From: Candidatus Obscuribacteraceae bacterium
GTDB taxonomy: Bacteria; Cyanobacteriota; Vampirovibrionia; Obscuribacterales; Obscuribacteraceae
Direction: 5' to 3'
DNA length: 64,000 nt
Assembly: GCA_044229845.1 (NCBI GenBank)
Contig: JBGASG010000002.1
Coordinates: 576,001 to 640,000 of the forward strand
A program made the translations under genes and the position numbers. This document shows, in pieces, positions 41,736 through 52,063 of this stretch; position 1 is the stretch's first letter, and every line of letters starts with the position of its first letter. The notes under the pieces were generated by a model. The model searched no databases, was not told the DNA's origin, and saw nothing but the letters and a program-made list of their open reading frames with translations.

Positions 41736-42118
41736 CGCTGTCTCCTTCTGGTATCCGGCTAATCGGGGCTTTCCGCACCGGGCGTCCCCTGAGATGAGGC
41801 GCCGGCGGCAGTTTCCCGCCCTAGTCTGATCCACTCAGCAGACAACCATATTGCAAGCCCGCTAAAACGGGCTGATTGCCTGCCCCTCTGCTTTAAATGA
41901 CCTCAGATCTTAGCGCACAAGCGCTTTTCAAACCCCTGAAGCGCGCTAATCAAGCAAGATTCGACCCGCTATGGCTGTCATTGCCCGCGTGCACAAAGTT
42001 TGCACGCCTCAAAAACGGGCACCCGTGGACCTTTGCGGTTTTCACAATTTTTTCACGGTCGCAGGCTTATGCTGGGCTCGTTAGGCAGGACCCTGGGTTG
42101 GTCTCTAGCGGGGCGGAA

Positions 42119-42433
42119 ATGAATCCAATCTCTGATAGGCGGGGTGTACCCGCGCGAGTCTTAGGGTCGCTTCTGGCGCAAGCCAGAGTCATAGCTGACT
42201 ACCAATTTCTGGCTGAGCACTGCGGTGTCACCCGGGAAGAAATAGATGCGGTCACGGACGACGATCAATCTACCACCATATCCGGTGCAGCCTGGGCAGC
42301 GCATCGCACCACATGCGAAACCGCCGACGATGCAAAAGAACTGTTCGGCGCCGCGCTTGGGGCGAACGCACGCGTGCGTTTCCTCGACAGCCTGCGCTCC
42401 GACCTCAGCGATTGCAACTCGGCCATCGCCTAG
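42119..42433 (+). CDS. hypothetical protein
   Basis: Short ORF filling the gap before the convergent gene; no motif. Confidence 0.4.
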   Translation: MNPISDRRGVPARVLGSLLAQARVIADYQFLAEHCGVTREEIDAVTDDDQSTTISGAAWAAHRTTCETADDAKELFGAALGANARVRFLDSLRSDLSDCNSAIA

Positions 42434-42440
42434 GCGGCCG

Positions 42441-45400
42441 CTATTCCATTTGTTCGTCTTGCGCAATTTGAATGGACGTGAACGCGTCTTTGATCGCGGT
42501 GTTGATGCGAATCAGCGCTTGCTCGGAAGACTTGCGCACCAGATAGGCATCCTCTTCCAGACGTGAGATCAATTCTTCTTGCAGTTGCTTGGCCCGCTCT
42601 TCCAGACTGGCGACGCTGGCATTCAGTGACTCGTGGATTTCTTGAGCGGCTTCGGAAGTTTTGGCATCCATGCGTTCCAAAACCGACTCACGCTCGTTCA
42701 ATAGATCCGCGTCGCCTTCGATATTGGCGGGGTCGCACAGCACTCGCACCGAGCGGTCCATTTCGGAAATCTGTTCTTCGGTGCGCTGGAATTTCGCCTT
42801 CGCATCCTCAATCGTGTCTTCGACGAAGGCGCGGAAGTCCATGTCGCAGCGGTCGGCATCGAAGCGCTGACGCTCCTCGACCGACTCGCGAATCTTGCTG
42901 GTCTGAACGATGACATCGGAGATTTGCTGTTTCTTGTCGTCCAGAATAGGCGCGAACTCTTCGATGATCTGGGCGGCTTTAGCTTCCAGGTCCGAAATCA
43001 ATTTGCTCTGAAACTCGCTGATCAACGCCCGCAGCGTATCGCGGTGCGTACGCAACTGCGGCGTCAACTGAGTCTGCACCGCATCCAGGCGAGCCGTGAC
43101 GAAATCCAGCTCTGCCGCCTGAATAGATTGTCCAAGTCGGGACAACACATCTTGATTGATGTGGTCGAGTTGTTTGCGGGCGCGGTCGTAGACCTGTCCC
43201 AGCTGGTTGTCCAGGTGTTCGTAGTTATCGCGCAGCGATTCGGCGGTGGACTTACTGCGGTCCTGCACCTGCTCGTTGACGTGCTCGATGATGCCGTCCA
43301 GTGCAAATGAATAGTATTCGTTTGCTTCCGTAAACTGATTGAGCAGCGACTCCATCAGTTGCCGCAAGTCAGCCATGGCTTTGGCACGCTGCGCATCGCT
43401 CGTTTCCTGGAAAGACCGCGCCAGCACTTCCGCTCGCACGCGCACTTCTTCGAACGACTCGTTGAGAGACTCGGTGAGCGACTTGTTTTTCTCATCGACG
43501 GCTTCTTCGCCTTCTTCGACGAAACGCTCGATCGCGTCGCGTCCGACGACAGCCTTCTGTCCTATGTCGACGCGCACATCGTTCATGGCTTGTTGCAGCC
43601 GCTCGGTCAGATAAGTGCGCAGTTCGTTGGTCTTTTCGATGCTGGCTTTTTCCGATTCGCGCACTTTCTCGACGGCAGACGAAAACGCGGAATTCAAAGA
43701 TTCGGAAATCTCTTCCAGCTGCTCTTCCAGCTTCGCGGACGCTTTGGTTGCCTGTTGCTCCAGCTTGGAGACCAGTCCGGCAACGCCGCTCTTCACGTTG
43801 AGCGGGTCTTTGAGGGCGCTGATACGGCTCTCTCCGAGCGGTCCCTCGGCTCTCTTCTTGCGCGGCGGCACGGCGGCGATCGACGACGGCGGCTCGATAC
43901 GCACCGGTTCCGGCACTTCGCGGGGCGGTTCCGGCTCTTCCGGTTCGGCTCCGAATGTGGCCAGAATCGGGTCGATCTTGGGCACGGAGATTTTCACTTG
44001 CGGCGGCGACGGCGGCGCGTCAGCATCGCTGCCTGCGCCCTTCACTTCCACAGGTCGCACCACTGACGGTGGCTCGATGTGCGGCTTTTGAATCTCAGTC
44101 GTAAACTCCGAGACGGGCAGCGGAGGCATGCCGGCATCGGCAGGCGGCGCCGGCGGCAATCCGGATCCCATAAAATCAATAGCCGGCGCGGCAGCCGGTA
44201 TTTCTGGCGCGGGCGCGGCGGTGCTTGTATCTGCAGCCGCAGCAGCTGGCGCCGGGGGCGCAGCGGGCGGTGCCGGTATTGTCGGTGCTGTCGGTGCTGT
44301 CGGTGCAGGTGTTGCCGGTGCAGGCGGTGTCGCCGCCGGTTCCGGTTCGCCGCCGCCGAATATATCTTGTGGCACCGGCGGTGGTGCCGGACCGCCACCA
44401 CCCAGCTTGGCAAGCGAATCCATGCCGGCGAACTTAGGCGGTTGCTGAGTCAAGCTACCCAGTAGTTTGCTGAAGCCGGTCGGTCCGCCGCTGCCGTCTT
44501 GGGCAGCATCACCACCGGGCGCATCCCAGGGCGAGGGTCCGCCGGGGGCAGAACCTGCTTCAGCGGCAGCAGCTGGTGGAGTTGACGGTGCATCGACAGG
44601 TGTTGGTGCCGCTTGCGGTGCGGTTTCCGCCGTATCTGCCGGCGGCGTCGCCGCTGCAGCCGGAGCCGCGCCGGCGTCGGCAGGTTGTTTGGATGGCGGC
44701 ACGGGAATCTTGATGGCCAGGCGACCGGGACGGGTGCTCGGCACCGGCGGTGGTGCGGGAGCTTCGACCGGCGGCGGTGGCGGGGCTGGCGGCACCGGCA
44801 ATTCGCTGGTGGCAGCAGTTGTGGGAGCAGCTGCAGGCGGAGTAGGCACAGACTCGGCAGACGGCATGTCCATTCCACCTTCGAAATCAGGCACTGGCGG
44901 TACACTTGGTTGGGCACCACCGGCGGGTGGCAGATTGCGCGGACCCAGTGAAGCCAGGATACCCGGACGTCCACCACCACCACCGGCGGCGGCAGGCGGT
45001 GTTGGTACGGCTGGCGCTGCCGGAGCTTCGGCAGCCGGCTGCGGCTGCGGTGCTTGCGGCACCGGCATAGACGGAATCTGCGGCATCGGAATTTTGATCT
45101 GGGGCTTCGGCTGGCTGGTGGTGATGGCTTCGCCAGGAGCGCCCGGGTCGGGAGTCTTGTTGTTGAGCGCGGCAGCTTCCGCCGCTTCCACAATCGCGCC
45201 CAGCAGAGCATCCTTGGCGTCGACACCAGGATTACGCTTCTGGAACTTAGCCAGCATCGGCATCGCGTCCATGGTCGCTTCCTGGTCGTCTTCCTTCTCT
45301 TCCAGATCCATATATAGGGCGGCGCGTTCACCGGTATTGGTCTTCGCAGCCGTTGCCACTTCCCCTGTCTCTTGCGCGCCAGCAGAACGTTCGTTGGTCC

Positions 45401-46049
45401 CCTCAAGGGCAACGAACACTTCGCGCATGTCAGGCAGCTTGGTGCCGGCCGGCGGCTCTTTGTCCGAGAAAAGCAAGAAGGCCAGTTGACCCGGATCGAG
45501 CACCGACTCGGTGAAACCCGGATCCATCTGCATGCCCAGCGTCGTTAAAAAAGTCATGACGGGATCGGGCAAATTCAATTGGTTGGCGCTGCGTGAACCT
45601 GAGCCGCCATACCGTGCCATCATCTCAGCCAGGCGCACATCGATCGTGTCGTCAATGTCCTGCTGTCTGCGTCCTACCGCATAGTAGAAGCCACCACCAT
45701 TGGATTTGGCGATTGCTGCCTGCACGGCAAGAAACTGTTCCAGCGGCTGCGTGTCGTACCGATCACCGGAAACATTGATGGCCATCAGCTGACCACCCTC
45801 GCCCTTGAGAATCAAGCACGCCTGCGCGACTTTAAAAGAATCGCCTTCCGAAACACCGATACCGCTGGTGGAGTCACCCCAGGGGCTGTAAATAGGATCG
45901 AGGAAGAAAAGCACATCGCCTGAACGCAGATTCTGCGCGTGGCGGGTCGCCCATACCTCCGGTGTGATGGTCGAAGACGGCTGCCAGTAACGAAGATACT
46001 GGCGCATCGTCTGGAAAGGTAGATTCTGCTGAAAAAGCAGGAAGCTCAT
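42441..46049 (-). CDS. 1202-aa protein: N-terminal globular domain, long Pro/Ala-rich linker, C-terminal hendecad helical rod
   Basis: Composition changes visible in the translation; 11-residue hydrophobic periodicity from about residue 765. Confidence 0.85.
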   Translation of the reverse strand: MSFLLFQQNLPFQTMRQYLRYWQPSSTITPEVWATRHAQNLRSGDVLFFLDPIYSPWGDSTSGIGVSEGDSFKVAQACLILKGEGGQLMAINVSGDRYDTQPLEQFLAVQAAIAKSNGGGFYYAVGRRQQDIDDTIDVRLAEMMARYGGSGSRSANQLNLPDPVMTFLTTLGMQMDPGFTESVLDPGQLAFLLFSDKEPPAGTKLPDMREVFVALEGTNERSAGAQETGEVATAAKTNTGERAALYMDLEEKEDDQEATMDAMPMLAKFQKRNPGVDAKDALLGAIVEAAEAAALNNKTPDPGAPGEAITTSQPKPQIKIPMPQIPSMPVPQAPQPQPAAEAPAAPAVPTPPAAAGGGGGRPGILASLGPRNLPPAGGAQPSVPPVPDFEGGMDMPSAESVPTPPAAAPTTAATSELPVPPAPPPPPVEAPAPPPVPSTRPGRLAIKIPVPPSKQPADAGAAPAAAATPPADTAETAPQAAPTPVDAPSTPPAAAAEAGSAPGGPSPWDAPGGDAAQDGSGGPTGFSKLLGSLTQQPPKFAGMDSLAKLGGGGPAPPPVPQDIFGGGEPEPAATPPAPATPAPTAPTAPTIPAPPAAPPAPAAAAADTSTAAPAPEIPAAAPAIDFMGSGLPPAPPADAGMPPLPVSEFTTEIQKPHIEPPSVVRPVEVKGAGSDADAPPSPPQVKISVPKIDPILATFGAEPEEPEPPREVPEPVRIEPPSSIAAVPPRKKRAEGPLGESRISALKDPLNVKSGVAGLVSKLEQQATKASAKLEEQLEEISESLNSAFSSAVEKVRESEKASIEKTNELRTYLTERLQQAMNDVRVDIGQKAVVGRDAIERFVEEGEEAVDEKNKSLTESLNESFEEVRVRAEVLARSFQETSDAQRAKAMADLRQLMESLLNQFTEANEYYSFALDGIIEHVNEQVQDRSKSTAESLRDNYEHLDNQLGQVYDRARKQLDHINQDVLSRLGQSIQAAELDFVTARLDAVQTQLTPQLRTHRDTLRALISEFQSKLISDLEAKAAQIIEEFAPILDDKKQQISDVIVQTSKIRESVEERQRFDADRCDMDFRAFVEDTIEDAKAKFQRTEEQISEMDRSVRVLCDPANIEGDADLLNERESVLERMDAKTSEAAQEIHESLNASVASLEERAKQLQEELISRLEEDAYLVRKSSEQALIRINTAIKDAFTSIQIAQDEQME

Positions 46050-47779
46050 GGGGTACCTTCTCCCTGTCCAGGCGGTCTCTTCTCTGTCCTGGTGACGCGA
46101 ATCTTAGGATTGCGACGCACCTCGCCTTCCGGCTTGGCCTCGGGAGGTTTCTCCTCAGCATCTTTGTCTGCGGCGGCAGCGCTATCATCTCTGTCAGCGG
46201 CAGCAGCGCTATCATCTCTGTCAGCGGCGGCAGCACCCGTGCTGTCGGAATCTTTGTCCTCGTCCGTCAATGCCGAAGCGATTTCCGAAAGCATGCTGCT
46301 CTCGTCGTCACCGGACTTGGCTGCCGCGCCATCGCTGTCTTTGCCGTCTTCCTCGCCCTTCTCGCCACGCGGCAGAGCGATGCGTTTGCTCTTAGCCGGT
46401 ACCGGTGTAGTTTCCAGCTTCAGCGAAGAGTCACTGGCACCGCCACCGGTGCCGGCTTTGAGAATAATATCCAGCGCCATCTGTTTGCGGGCGTTAACCC
46501 GGTCGATAAAGACTGTCGCCAACGCTTCTATAGATGCGATGCGCTCTCCGGAGATCGTCTTGAACTCGGAGGCGGCCCCTTCCTGTGCGGTGGTGATGGC
46601 AGTTTCCGCCTCCGCGCAAATGCTCTTCAGCTCTTCCAGCGTCTTGGTGGCCAGTGAATTCAGTTTCTCACCGAACTTGGACTGTACATCCTCCAGCTCG
46701 TTCCAGATTTCCTGCACCAGGCGTCCGCGCTCGTCATCGAGCTCTTGCCTGAAAGTCTCACCCGATCTGATGCGGCGGGTCAGCTCATCGGTAAATGCCG
46801 TCATGTGCACGGTGCCCGACTTGCGCAAATCTTGTTCACGGTCGGCCAGATGGCTGATTATCGACTCGGCGAGGCTATCCATGTCGCGGCTCAAGTCTTG
46901 CGTTTTCATCGATAGATCGGCCATCGATGACTCGTGCAAGCTCTCCAGATCGGAAGCCGCCCGCACGGATGCATAATCGAATGAGCCGTTGGAATCATCG
47001 AGCGACTGTTTGAAGCTGTGCTGCAGATGCTCTTCGGCATCGTTGGTTTTTTCGGTAGCACCACGCAACAGCCGCTCGAGCACTTGCTTGATCTCAGTTT
47101 GCCCCTCGCGCGAGAAATTGGCGAAGCCCTTGGTGCAGGTGCTCAAGTTTTCGACGATGCGCTCTTCAGCATAGGTGACGCTGGTTTTTACCGAGCTCAA
47201 GTGTGTGAAGTAGGAGCCGAACAGTTTGTTTTTGGCTTCGTTTTCGTCTTCGACCAGCGTATGGAGGTTTTCTTCCACAGCCTTCTGCGATTCATCGACG
47301 GCGACGTTGCCGGTATCTTTGATTTGCTGTGCAGCCGACAAGCCATGGCGCAGCAAATTGGTGTGCACATCGTTGGCTTCCGCATCATGCTGGTCGGTGG
47401 CATCTTTAGATACGTCAGCCAGTCTATGCCCGGAAGAAACTTTCAGGTGATTGACCGACTCGGAAAACTTCTTTGTCAAAAGCACCAGTCCTTCGACAAG
47501 GTTTTTGACGCACTTTTCGTTTTCATGAATTTCCGACGCCACAGCTTTCTCGATACGTTCCAGTCCGCGATCGAGGTAAGCGCGCAGCTCTTCTTCCAGC
47601 TGCGCCGTTTTGTCTTCCAGCAGCTTGCGCGCCGCCGGCTCATCTTGAGTGTGTGTCGTCAGGTGACTTTCGGTAGCCTGTTCAATAGCATTCTTCTGGT
47701 TGACCTCGAGTTCTTCGAGGCGCTTTTCACCAGCGTCGAATATATCTTGAAGGCTCTTACCAGAAACGTTCACTGCCAC
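46046..47779 (-). CDS. hendecad helical-rod protein with acidic disordered tail
   Basis: 11-residue periodicity over about 440 aa; AAAADRDDS repeats in the tail; ATGA overlap with next gene. Confidence 0.85.
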   Translation of the reverse strand: MAVNVSGKSLQDIFDAGEKRLEELEVNQKNAIEQATESHLTTHTQDEPAARKLLEDKTAQLEEELRAYLDRGLERIEKAVASEIHENEKCVKNLVEGLVLLTKKFSESVNHLKVSSGHRLADVSKDATDQHDAEANDVHTNLLRHGLSAAQQIKDTGNVAVDESQKAVEENLHTLVEDENEAKNKLFGSYFTHLSSVKTSVTYAEERIVENLSTCTKGFANFSREGQTEIKQVLERLLRGATEKTNDAEEHLQHSFKQSLDDSNGSFDYASVRAASDLESLHESSMADLSMKTQDLSRDMDSLAESIISHLADREQDLRKSGTVHMTAFTDELTRRIRSGETFRQELDDERGRLVQEIWNELEDVQSKFGEKLNSLATKTLEELKSICAEAETAITTAQEGAASEFKTISGERIASIEALATVFIDRVNARKQMALDIILKAGTGGGASDSSLKLETTPVPAKSKRIALPRGEKGEEDGKDSDGAAAKSGDDESSMLSEIASALTDEDKDSDSTGAAAADRDDSAAAADRDDSAAAADKDAEEKPPEAKPEGEVRRNPKIRVTRTEKRPPGQGEGTP

Positions 47780-47783
47780 CTCG

Positions 47784-49205
47784 CTAATCCGCCCCGAACG
47801 ACAACATAGCCTTGCGATACGCTACGACCGTGATCTCCGCATCGCGTCCGGCTTTCTCTATCTGTTCGAGCTGCGATTCCAGCTCGGTGCACTGTTTTTG
47901 AAACTCCTTCATCGCCCGCTCTACATCTTTAGCCATCATGCGGCTTTCGCGTTCGAGCAATTCCACGGCACCAGCTTTGGTGCTCTCGATGCGCTGGTTA
48001 AACCCATCGGTCGACTTGACGAAGTCGCTGAGCAAAGTCTCGGAAGCACTGCGCACCGACTCGGTCAATCCGGCGCCCCAGCGCTTCAGGTGCGTGGTCA
48101 ACTGATCGCGCAACTTCTGATCTTTATGCTGGCGAGCAATACCTGTATAACGCAAGTCCGCATTGTGCTCGCTGATATATGTTTCGAGGCGCTTGAGCAG
48201 AGTTTCCAGTTTCTCCAGATATTCGCGTTCGAGCGCTCGCAAAGAAACTTCCAGTTCGCTACGCGTCAAACGAATCTTTTCCTGCGCCTGGTGTGTCAGT
48301 TCGCCCAATTCGTTGCGAGCCTGAGCGCCGACGTTAGCCAGTTTCGTCTCATAAGCTTCGCGCAGCACGGTACTCAAGTTGAGCAGCGAACTGTCGAAGT
48401 TGTCGCAGACTTCGCCGACCTGTTCTTTGAAATTGTCATTGGCGCGATCCAGTGCTTGCAGCGCCGTAGACTTTGCTGCTTTCACGGAATCAAGTCCGAC
48501 TTCGCTCTTCAAATTGAGCTGCTCGATAGTTTCTTCACAGCGCACGCTCAGATCGTCAGCCAGTCCATCGGTCTTGCCGCGCAGTTGTTCCTGGCAATCG
48601 GAGAGCGTGCGCGAAATCTGGCCGCGCGCGGAGTCGGTTTTGTCGACGATGCTGCCGGAGACCTGTCCCAACTTTTCCGCCAGCATGATTTCTGCCTGAT
48701 CTCTGCTGGAATCGATCGATTGACTGCTTTCGTCAAGAAACGTCTTGAGCGCCTTGATCGTCACATCGGAAGCGCTGCGAATCTGGCGCTCCGGTTCTTC
48801 GAGATAGGTGCGCAGTTCGGACATGCGCGTTTCGATCAAAGTGGCTATTTTCGATTCCAGCTCAGAGGAGTGATTGGCCAGCCTAGAACGCACATCGCGA
48901 CCGGATGCAAGTATTGCTTCCACTTCCGCCCGCTCGGCTTCGGAAAGCTCCTTCATGAGCTTCTCTTTGTCGCGCAGCAGATCTTCTAAATTGCTTTTCA
49001 CGCAGTAGTCGAACCGGCGCGACACGGCGCGCAGCTCTTCTTCAAATGATTTACCGAGGCTGTCGCTGAACGTAATTAAGTGCTCGGTGTAAGTCGACAC
49101 CGATTTCTCAAGCTCGACGCTGGCTTTTGCCAATGCCTCGAGCATCTGCTTAGCGGTTGAGTCAAAATTTTCAGCTGATTGTGACTTGCTGGTTGCCATT
49201 GCCAA
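47784..49205 (-). CDS. hendecad helical-rod protein
   Basis: Uninterrupted 11-residue periodicity over about 200 aa; 4 bp from the next gene; alternative ATG at 49199. Confidence 0.85.
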   Translation of the reverse strand: MAMATSKSQSAENFDSTAKQMLEALAKASVELEKSVSTYTEHLITFSDSLGKSFEEELRAVSRRFDYCVKSNLEDLLRDKEKLMKELSEAERAEVEAILASGRDVRSRLANHSSELESKIATLIETRMSELRTYLEEPERQIRSASDVTIKALKTFLDESSQSIDSSRDQAEIMLAEKLGQVSGSIVDKTDSARGQISRTLSDCQEQLRGKTDGLADDLSVRCEETIEQLNLKSEVGLDSVKAAKSTALQALDRANDNFKEQVGEVCDNFDSSLLNLSTVLREAYETKLANVGAQARNELGELTHQAQEKIRLTRSELEVSLRALEREYLEKLETLLKRLETYISEHNADLRYTGIARQHKDQKLRDQLTTHLKRWGAGLTESVRSASETLLSDFVKSTDGFNQRIESTKAGAVELLERESRMMAKDVERAMKEFQKQCTELESQLEQIEKAGRDAEITVVAYRKAMLSFGAD

Positions 49206-49480: not shown

Positions 49481-52063
49481 TTATTTGACGCGACCGAGGG
49501 TCGGGCGGCGGCCGGTTTTGGTTGCACCGGTCACTTTTCTTTTGCCGTTTTTGCCGTTTCGTTCGCTTTGTTTGACTCTGGCGCTCGCTTTAGCGCTTGC
49601 CTTGCGGGTTGATGATGGCTTCTTGGTAGATCTTGCGGCGGTTTTGGATTTAGTAGCGGCACTCTTGACCGGCACCGTCTCTTTCCGTCCAGCTTTGGCG
49701 GTGGATTTCGGTTCGGCTTTCTTATCGGCTTTGCTGTCCGCTCTATTGAATGACAGTCTGAAGACCTCATCCAAGTGCGCGACCGGGATTAGCGTCAATT
49801 TTTCAGTGACGTATTGCGGGATGTCCTGCAAATCCTTTTCGTTGCCTTTTGGGAAAAGTACCGTGGTGACGCCGGCGCGCACTGCAGCCAGGACTTTTTC
49901 GCGCAGACCGCCGATGGAGAGCACGCGTCCGCGCAGGGTTACTTCGCCGGTCATGGCCAGACCCGGGCGCACAGCACGCTTGGCGAGCGCCGAGAAAAGC
50001 GCAACCGTAAGTGCAATACCAGCCGAGGGACCATCTTTGGGGATGGCGCCTTCCGGGATGTGTACGTGGATGTCGATGTGTTCCTGGAACGACGGGTCAA
50101 CGCCCAGACGGTCGGCGTGACTGCGTATATAGGTGAGCGCCGCCTGCGCCGATTCCTTCATGACGTCGCCGAGTTGTCCGGTCAACTGCAATTTGCCTTT
50201 GCCGGACATGATGTTGACTTCGATGGAGAGAATTTCGCCGCCGGTCTCGGTCCAGGCCAAGCCGTTGACGATGCCGATACGCGGACCGGGCCCGTGCACT
50301 TCTTCTTCGCGCAAAATCTTCGCCGGTCCCAGATACTTTGGCACCATAATCGGTACCATCTTCACGAGCGTGGAAGGTTCCATAACCACCTGGGTCGCCA
50401 CCTTGCGGCAGACGGTGGCTACTGCGCGTTCCAGCGAACGCACACCCGACTCGCGCGTGTACTCTTGAATGATCTTGCGAATCACATCTTTGGGCACCAC
50501 CAGCTGTTTCTCTTTCAGCCCGTGACGATCCATAGTCTTGGGAATGATGTGCTTCTCGGCAATCGCCACCTTCTCTTCTTCTGTATAACCGGAGAGACGA
50601 ATGATCTCCAGCCGGTCGTGCAGCGGTCGCGGAATATATTCCAGCGAGTTGGCGGTGGCGACGAAGAAAACTTCCTTCAACGAGAACGGTGCATCGACGT
50701 AGTGATCCACGAAATTATCGTTCTGATCCGGGTCGAGCACTTCCAACATGGCGGCGGTCGGATCGCCCATATAACTGCGGGTCATCTTCTCGATTTCATC
50801 GAGCAAAATAACCGGGTTGCGGGTGCCGGCTTGTTTGACAGCCTGCATGATGCGTCCCGGCATGGCACCAATATAGGTGCGGCGGTGTCCGCGAATTTCC
50901 GCTTCGTCGTTGACTCCACCAAGGCTGATGCGCACGAACTCACGGTTCATGGCGCGCGCAATTGATTTGACCAGACTGGTTTTGCCGACGCCGGGCGGAC
51001 CGACCAGGCACAAAATAGTCGCTTGCGGCTGCTTCGAAAGTTTCCGCACCGCCAGATATTCGATAATCCGCTCTTTGACCTTTTCCAGCCCGTGGTGATC
51101 GGCATCGAGAATTTCCTGCGAACGACGCAAGTCGAGAATATCGCGGGAACGCTTCGCCCAGGGCAGTGACACCAGCGTGTCCAGATAAGTGCGGATAACG
51201 GCTGCCTCAGCCGTTTGCGGCATCATTTTCTCGAGGCGGCTCAACTCTTTGTTGGCTTTCTCGAGCGCGATACCGGTGACTTTCGCTTTGGCGATCTTCT
51301 GCCTGTACTCAGCAATTTCGCCGACCGCTTCGCCTTCGGCATTCAGCTCTTCCTGAATGATTCGCATCTTCTCGCGCAAGTAATATTCGCGCTGCGTCTT
51401 CTCTAAATTGAAGCGGACGCGGTCGTGAATTTGCTGTTCGAGAAACGCCAGCTCCAACTCGCGTGAGAGCAGCGATCCTACGTATTCAAGGCGTTCGGCG
51501 CTGTTGATGATCTCGAGGCACCGCTGGCGCTCGGCAACATCAAGTCCAAGATACGTGGCGATGATGTCGGAGAGGCGCCCTGGTTGTCCGATTCCGGAGA
51601 CCGCCAGGAGCGACTCCGGATTGATCTTCTTGGTCGATTTGACGTACTGCTCGAATTTCTCCACCGTCAGGCGAATCAGAGTCTTGGTGTGGTTATCGTC
51701 GGGGACGACTTCGTCCTGTTCGATAACACTAGCCGTTAAGTGAGACTCGCCCTGGTAGAGCGCTTCCACACTGACACGACACGAACCTTCCACCAGCACC
51801 TTGACGGTGCCGTCCGGCAGCTTGAGCATCTGCATTACTTCAGCCAGCGTGCCGATGCGATAGACATCATCAGAGGTCGGCTCTTCCACGTCCGGATCGC
51901 GCTGGGCGACCAGCACGACCAGCTTGTCGTCCCGCAGCAGCGCCTGCTCGAGCGCCGAAATGGACTTGGCCCGGCTGACGAACAGCGGCGTCACCATCTG
52001 CGGAAATACCACCACGTCACGTAGCGGAATCAAAGGGAAAATGGTGTTGCTGATGTCCGCCAT
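49481..52063 (-). CDS. lon: ATP-dependent protease La (LonA) with basic C-terminal tail
   Basis: [37 protein letters not shown] catalytic Ser, GGLREK. Confidence 0.97.

Follow-up and report, generated by a model that had tools for sequence, protein, structure and literature searches.

Locus and gene organization

The stretch of DNA analysed here (the window) comprises 64,000 nt of contig JBGASG010000002.1 from an Obscuribacteraceae genome that is 88% complete; all coordinates are window positions unless labelled otherwise. It carries three consecutive genes, termed A, B and C, each of which encodes a long helical rod with an 11-residue (hendecad) hydrophobic register. As judged from sequence, A-B-C is a real, order-wide and undescribed three-gene system of the Obscuribacterales, and its sequences give evidence for a rod of three parallel chains. 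The features of the locus are as follows.

47784..49205, minus strand: open reading frame (ORF) of gene A, 473 aa, consisting of a rod alone; its hendecad helix spans about residues 12-468 and is interrupted near residues 350-362 by a loop that varies
48120..48158, minus strand: hinge loop in A, at about residues 350-362; length varies nowhere else in this rod, and the AlphaFold2 model shows a helix break here
46046..47779, minus strand: ORF of gene B, 577 aa
46448..47779, minus strand: rod of B, residues 1-444; hendecad register unbroken and almost proline-free, of fixed length in 44 of 54 non-redundant homologues
46046..46447, minus strand: tail of B, residues 445-577; acidic, disordered, of low complexity
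42441..46049, minus strand: ORF of gene C, 1202 aa
45390..46049, minus strand: head of C, residues 1-220; predicted permuted papain-like NlpC/P60 (YiiX/BcPPNE-like) fold with no conserved catalytic Cys or His
43800..45389, minus strand: linker of C, about residues 221-750 (530 aa); rich in Pro, Ala, Glu and Ser, disorder predicted from composition
42441..43799, minus strand: rod of C, about residues 751-1202; hendecad helix with Pro997 and a break at about 1104-1115, of fixed length in 41 of 54 homologues
49481..52063, minus strand: lon, the upstream neighbour here, outside the A-B-C system

An initial annotation, made from the sequence alone, had described three coupled genes with hendecad rods of equal length. 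The 4-bp gap between A and B (47780-47783) and the ATGA overlap of B and C are both seen, and the hendecad segments that it quoted lie at A208-252, B10-32 and C763-796; the folded head and the Pro/Ala-rich linker of C, the acidic disordered tail of B and the breaks in the register had gone unmentioned. Contigs assembled from RNA runs (four runs, three studies) span all three genes and bridge both junctions, which fits transcription of A-B-C, though DNA in the libraries could also give such contigs; among the matches listed, no RNA contig bridges the lon-A junction. Promoter and terminator scans gave counts no higher than the shuffle level.

Hendecad periodicity and rod composition

The computed hydrophobicity spectra peak at 3.665 residues for A (power 47), 3.665 for B (power 46) and 3.68 for the C rod (power 31). 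In 200 shuffles the power at 3.667 reaches at most about 6, and the heptad power (3.5) of A, B and C is about 1; the 11/3 periodicity, for which the initial annotation had suggested a Fourier analysis, is thus borne out far above shuffles. Among the 8247 stop-to-stop frames of the genome, A, B and C take ranks 1, 2 and 4 for 11/3 power. A 22-residue period is absent from their spectra (power 0.2-1.4). The register breaks near A350-362, C997 and C1104-1115, with Pro997 of C conserved in 53 of 54 homologues, and the AlphaFold2 model of A alone consists of long helices (pTM 0.25) that are interrupted at the hinge and, with low confidence, near residue 200.

Leu, Ile, Val, Met, Phe, Trp and Tyr together occupy 78-89% of core position a, 44-58% of e, 40-52% of h, 32-35% of d and 23-37% of i; Ala is scarce in the core and reaches up to 17% only at h. 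Dimeric hendecads are reported to require Ala cores, other cores giving higher oligomers (PMC9858780), and by this rule the large-hydrophobic cores of the rods favour more than two helices. The median number of prolines per rod is 3.5 in A, 0 in B and 3 in C; the net charge of the rods is about -16 to -21, with no clear Lys/Arg rim. As initially annotated, the three proteins have no transmembrane helix (highest 19-residue mean hydropathy 0.88). Mean hydropathy does not exceed 1.6 anywhere in 54 A and 54 B homologues, and the high values in C fall within the head.

Distribution, gene order and rod length

A profile of the C head matched 94 of 107 Obscuribacterales genomes, including 36 of the 39 of high quality, and none of 143 genomes from other orders of the class. 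In single-protein searches A, B and the C rod were found in 24, 23 and 23 of 27 genomes of the same order and in 0 of 13 others. Against 1.84 billion representatives the head profile retrieved 116 proteins, two of them repetitive noise; ten matches were looked up, and all three that carry an organism name are from Obscuribacterales. A gave partial matches in 16 of 200 other genomes of the phylum and a full-length match in none. A word-based homologue search with A returned 20 of the 7999 proteins scored, and the named ones are hypothetical proteins except for one automatic RmuC label. Five genomes of the order gave no match to the C head (G017, G079 and G117-G119; three of these are 93-98% complete); G017 and G079 also gave no match to A, and G118 a weak, unrelated one.

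For comparison of gene order, 96 loci were fetched, 18 of them through matches to A and 78 through matches to the C head; most places at which a contig end cuts the upstream side were excluded. With the window, the set comprises 97 loci. A, B and C stand in the same order in all 97 (96 by script and one, L113, by eye). On synteny across Vampirovibrionia, proposed as a check in the initial annotation: A-B-C order is kept within Obscuribacterales, and the C head gave no match in the 143 genomes from other orders of the class. The operon is mostly single-copy, and the trees of the three rods have 32-34 of 34-35 well-supported splits in common, as is expected from co-inheritance alone.

Complete triplets are present in 78 of the 97 loci, the other 19 having been set aside as cut, split or unassigned; 54 of the triplets remain below 90% identity. 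Within this set of 54, the median identity to the window's own proteins is 24% for A and 20% each for B and C, and the computed length between anchors is 430 aa for B in 44 and 444 aa for the C rod in 41; A measures 447-453 aa in 45, with the variation at one loop. The C linker extends from about 80 to 1200 aa (median about 670), a range of about fifteen-fold, and the B tail from absent to about 380 residues (median 16). The rare deletions in the rods sit at one level in all three chains: nine divergent paralogous loci all have deletions at B 329-345 and at C-rod 359-362, and five of the nine also lack 11 residues at A 351.

Covariation and complex prediction

Charge anti-correlation between the chains was corrected for relatedness and summed on every parallel and antiparallel diagonal, with offsets in alignment numbering. 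The best diagonal is parallel for every pair, at +12 for A-B (z 4.1), -2 for A-C (z 3.9) and -15 for B-C (z 4.1), and these three offsets close into one register within one residue (subtracting 12 from -2 gives about -15). In 35 of the sequences the ranks of these offsets among about 670 parallel ones are 1, 1 and 1, and in the other 19 they are 4, 1 and 3. Closure of the register was found in 0 of 100 row permutations and in 3 of 1000 permutations of 11-column blocks, in which relatedness is kept; the summed z was matched in 0 of 1000 block permutations. Antiparallel fold-back diagonals within a chain were sought as well, and none is prominent (best z 3.3 for charge and 3.5 for volume). The pairwise signals expected of a trimer are identical to those of an (ABC)2 ring.

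ESMFold2 was run on the 337, 328 and 329 C-terminal residues of A, B and C (three quarters) and gave a score of 0.52, against 0.02 for the best control. Of 157 solved complexes, 116 attain the mark applied to such scores, as do 2 of 215 mismatches; at 0.60 or under, only 18 of the 157 solved complexes attain it, along with both mismatches. At least 84% of contacts are shared between runs, the partner pLDDT is at least 73, and swapping out chain A cut the score of C to 0.02. The prediction weakly supports a three-chain complex.

The view that A, B and C are paralogs is not borne out: hhalign gave 96-98% for the true pairs against 93-97% for reversed-sequence controls, and paralogy is unsupported because these controls match as well as the true pairs. 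Colinear offsets between the rods are likewise no better than 11-block shuffles (p 0.3-0.58). A common origin of the three is possible, and sequence cannot decide it. The motif ELR(T/A)YL, initially noted in all three rods, is present at A130, B64 and C809, but only in 1 of 54 homologues per family; it carries no meaning because it is confined to the window's own copy in each family.

The head of C

The AlphaFold2 model of the C head (19-row alignment) has a pLDDT of 88 and a pTM of 0.87. In a comparison with 48,161 chains, the model came closest to YiiX (Z 7.2, rmsd 4.0, 133 aligned residues) and BcPPNE (Z 7.1, rmsd 4.3, 148 aligned); the next match has a Z of 5.2, and further papain-like folds score lower. 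Foldseek also placed the YiiX/BcPPNE family near the top, with no row below an E of 0.001. A GD-hydrophobic strand and the order of helices match those of the YiiX family, and the pairwise profile alignment has a P of 4e-4. These models and alignments support, with moderate confidence, a permuted papain-like NlpC/P60 (YiiX-like) fold. Sequence searches with the head found no Pfam family beyond scattered weak rows and one weak PDB row, and the best Atlas match (0.89) is a lead only.

In YiiX-type enzymes the catalytic residues are Cys, His, Glu and Tyr; YiiX itself is reported to hold a fatty acid (PMC3142127). In 90 head sequences, W33, G44, G151 and R153 are conserved in 97-100%, and no column has His above 40%. 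The sole Cys column (190, 51% of the 90 heads) lies one helix beyond the expected site, near which Pro163 is found; the mapping of the catalytic site was by profile alignment, not by superposed coordinates. An active permuted NlpC/P60 (YiiX) enzyme was rejected for the C head on this account, the fold being as predicted for such an enzyme and its Cys/His dyad being absent. From its sequence, the head is probably catalytically dead and an enzyme-like binding module.

Interpretation and alternative explanations

We consider it likely that one cytoplasmic, parallel hendecad coiled-coil rod, serving as a strut or tether, is built from A, B and C, with all three chains obligatory. The periodicity, the constant gene set and its order, the locked lengths, the fold of the head and the lost catalytic residues are computed results; direct binding of the chains, their orientation and their register are inferred from the covariation and the weak model. 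The three chains would fold together from one transcript and run parallel in a nearly straight rod, each contributing about 440 residues, which at 0.15 nm per residue makes about 65 nm; their shares would be equal, in a heterotrimer or else in a multiple of it, (ABC)2 for example. The register would be roughly A(i), B(i-17), C(i+741), within 3 residues either way, with a common hinge about three quarters along the rod; partners would be chosen via complementary flanking charges, and the mutual register would keep the length of the rod constant and make it a strut or tether of fixed length. The YiiX-like head of C, on a long, disordered leash of variable length, would bind some ligand or partner, for which the first guess is an acyl chain or a lipidated protein; this is conjecture, as are end-to-end polymerisation of the rod and any cellular job given to it. 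The heteromeric rod of about 65 nm proposed in the initial annotation is in this respect retained, on the strength of synteny, locked lengths, co-located deletions, closed parallel covariation and the weak complex prediction; its description as an assembly of paralogs is not borne out.

Several points weigh against a three-chain rod of this kind. The covariation comes from only 54 sequences (effective number 38), and 4.4% of shuffles reach a z of 3.9 for a lone pair. In the last third of the rod the A-B signal is missing (z 0.8), an antiparallel A-B offset is slightly ahead in the 35-sequence subset (3.6 against 3.4), and the A-C and B-C peaks are each lost in two of four smoothing widths when relatedness is left uncorrected; covariation of side-chain volume gave no consistent register. 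The ESMFold2 controls were unrelated proteins, not other hendecad rods. The two paralog groups that bear the deletions are sisters in the tree, and the deletions are possibly one event. The Z of about 7 for the head is within the range that the tool calls common, and its Foldseek E values are all above 0.001. G017 (98% complete) and G079 (93%) have no match. The neighbours of the operon are metabolic or protease genes, none of which ties A-B-C to shape, division or membranes.

A coat on a membrane, lipid body or storage granule, formed by amphipathic helices like those of exchangeable apolipoproteins and with a head that binds acyl chains, we regard as improbable. The apolipoproteins A1/A4/E are made of proline-punctuated 22-residue repeats. 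The rods weakly match this Pfam family (Apolipoprotein, PF01442) with 50.3, 14.8 and 50.7 bits for A, B and C, under its curated cut-off of 90, and A1/A4/E membership was rejected on these scores and on the lack of a 22-residue period; Phasin (27.6 against a cut-off of 28.8) and ApoLp-III also appear among the weak Pfam matches. A coat would further suit the broad hydrophobic face (five of the 11 positions) and the usual site of the operon amid pyruvate/2-oxoacid dehydrogenase, lipA and desaturase-like genes, as we presume these to be from sequence features, and likewise the fatty acid bound by YiiX (PMC3142127). The missing 22-residue period, the medians of only 0-3.5 prolines per rod, the negative net charge and the unclear Lys/Arg rim speak against it, and it leaves the locked lengths, the three obligatory chains and the charge pairing between chains unexplained. 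PhaC_N was not found in any of five genomes searched (three with the operon). A search for WS/DGAT carries no weight either way, as it had no match anywhere, even in the controls. Among the filament, polar scaffold and lipid-body coat that the initial annotation had offered, the coat fits the evidence least well.

A rod with variable disordered arms resembles the neurofilament triplet, and homodimers, heterodimers or hairpins might co-polymerise into a network like that of intermediate filaments (FilP/Scy- or ZicK/ZacK-like) with no fixed three-chain unit. FilP and Scy are hendecad-rich cytoskeletal dimers (PMC9858780), ZicK and ZacK are reported as an obligate heteropolymer (10.1101/553073), and lateral packing of filaments could likewise yield covariation between chains. 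We nevertheless give such a network only a small chance: all three pairs covary in a single closed parallel register, the cores lack the Ala of dimeric hendecads, no antiparallel diagonal within a chain is prominent, and the score of C in the model fell to 0.02 on replacement of chain A.

It is very unlikely, in our judgement, that the rod is a signal-conducting or length-measuring machine part like the tail of ZorA, with a role in defence or stress together with gene D, an ADP-ribosyltransferase-like gene found after C in 54 of the 74 loci that leave room for it. Typical defence islands differ from the near-universal, mostly single-copy placement of A-B-C at housekeeping sites, with congruent trees. 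All three rods weakly match ZorA tail regions (best E 2.5e-9), this tail being a 70-nm helical bundle (PMC11946911), and one genus has up to four divergent copies. ZorA itself was rejected: A, B and C have no membrane segment or MotA-like membrane domain, no ZorB-like neighbour or other motor partner gene was seen, and NCBIfam ZorA scores 22.6 bits against a cut-off of 190. Gene D, moreover, has no tblastn hit in the 88% complete source genome.

The three-chain strut or tether can also be extended to a bolder picture, which is tentative and doubtful as a whole: a laminin-like obligate heterotrimer whose 65-nm hendecad rod polymerises by its conserved ends into an order-wide cytoskeleton, with the disordered arms as spacers and the pseudo-enzyme head as an anchor to lipid or lipidated proteins, perhaps regulated by gene D.

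Comparison with known systems

Several other candidates were rejected for A, B and C. For SMC/Rad50/SbcC, no SMC family was matched in Pfam or NCBIfam, the Walker A pattern occurs in 1, 0 and 0 of the 54 homologues, and the power at 3.5 is about 1. For phage tape-measure proteins, 0 PHROGs families were found at E 0.01 for any of the three, and the neighbours are housekeeping genes. A DivIVA-like protein would agree with the hendecad rod; A, B and C have no GYD, match no DivIVA family in Pfam and do not have an Ala-rich core. Tripartite alpha-pore-forming toxins (ClyA/HBL type) are compact helical bundles with a hydrophobic membrane hairpin; no such Pfam family and no hydrophobic stretch was found, and the model of A is a long helix (pTM 0.25).

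Animals have well-known proteins, laminin and fibrinogen among them, in which three different chains make up a long coiled coil. GPR, the growth pole ring protein of Agrobacterium, is membrane-anchored; it has long continuous helices with apolipoprotein-like scores and acts as a scaffold. By analogy, A-B-C would work most like the scaffolds FilP/Scy, ZicK/ZacK and GPR, with a chain architecture as in laminin and a length as in the ZorA tail. GPR is, however, a single protein of 2115 aa that forms a hexameric ring (PMC8262873), whereas A-B-C comprises three proteins. FilP and Scy of Streptomyces are, like A-B-C, long cytoplasmic hendecad rods, encoded by genes close together and proposed as scaffolds; they are described as dimers with Ala cores and an N-terminal GYDxxEVD (PMC9858780), whereas A, B and C lack this motif, have Leu/Ile cores and are three different covarying chains. 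ZicK and ZacK of Anabaena, in the same phylum, are encoded by adjacent coiled-coil-rich genes and depend on each other for assembly (10.1101/553073), but are two components, not three. In laminin's long arm, three different chains form one long interrupted coiled coil, some of them with globular domains (PMC6744579); laminin is animal, extracellular, heptad-based and disulphide-linked, and the analogy is one of architecture only, with no homology claimed. The cytoplasmic tail of ZorA is also a helical bundle, comparable in length (about 70 nm; PMC11946911) and with weak profile matches to the rods, yet ZorA forms a homopentamer that belongs to a membrane motor with ZorB, and A-B-C is three soluble chains with no motor. 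The YiiX/BcPPNE enzymes share the predicted fold of the C head, which differs from them in lacking the catalytic Cys and His and any Pfam match and in being fused to a linker and rod.

Neither A-B-C nor any bacterial long coiled coil of three different chains was found described among the papers listed by searches on hendecads, heterotrimeric coiled coils and Obscuribacterales/Vampirovibrionia/Melainabacteria; the 2023 hendecad survey of Martinez-Goikoetxea and Lupas lay outside this search and may list these proteins. The system is a candidate for a defining structural trait of an order of non-photosynthetic cyanobacterial relatives with little-known cell biology. Its register, its hinge and its natural paralogous sets, which would each sort their own partners, could make it a model for hendecad packing and chain selection.

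Genomic context and associated genes

The link to lon suggested by the initial annotation is correct for the window, where A begins 275 bp past the lon stop, but it is local: the gene upstream of A is lpd in 55 of the 97 loci, lon in eight, another or unassigned gene in 31, and three loci are too short to tell. The lon gene here we take to be the end of a tig-clpP-clpX-lon run, the gene names being assigned from sequence features. At the other end of the operon, a small ORF (41897-42433, plus strand) converges on the end of C and has no Pfam match. MreB is present in carriers and non-carriers of the operon alike (five of five genomes).

One locus (L125; G000:C8:466000-477000) has the run of lipA, dehydrogenase-complex, lpd, aldehyde dehydrogenase and desaturase genes with no A-B-C after lpd; in this genome either the operon has been relocated or copies have been differentially lost. 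Another genome (G084) carries four complete, divergent A-B-C triplets (L047-L050), two of which flank genes for PAS-receiver-Hpt proteins, and up to four triplets per genome occur in genus g13.

In genomes of a family from another order (f6), three loci (L143:3522-10238, L144:5111-11107 and L145:4671-11924) carry genes for soluble proteins, 2000-2400 aa in size, in which the 11/3 period extends over a long stretch. Each of these long-rod genes adjoins the same 461-aa gene, and their similarity to A is partial and weak.

Gene D is well conserved; its product measures about 215-240 aa and contains an HGT[NS] motif, and the gene, where present, lies directly after C (e.g. L022:14319-14975, plus strand). 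The leads to its fold point to an ADP-ribosyltransferase (Pfam ART-PolyVal at E 0.019 in one of three sequences; Atlas matches of 0.91-0.92).

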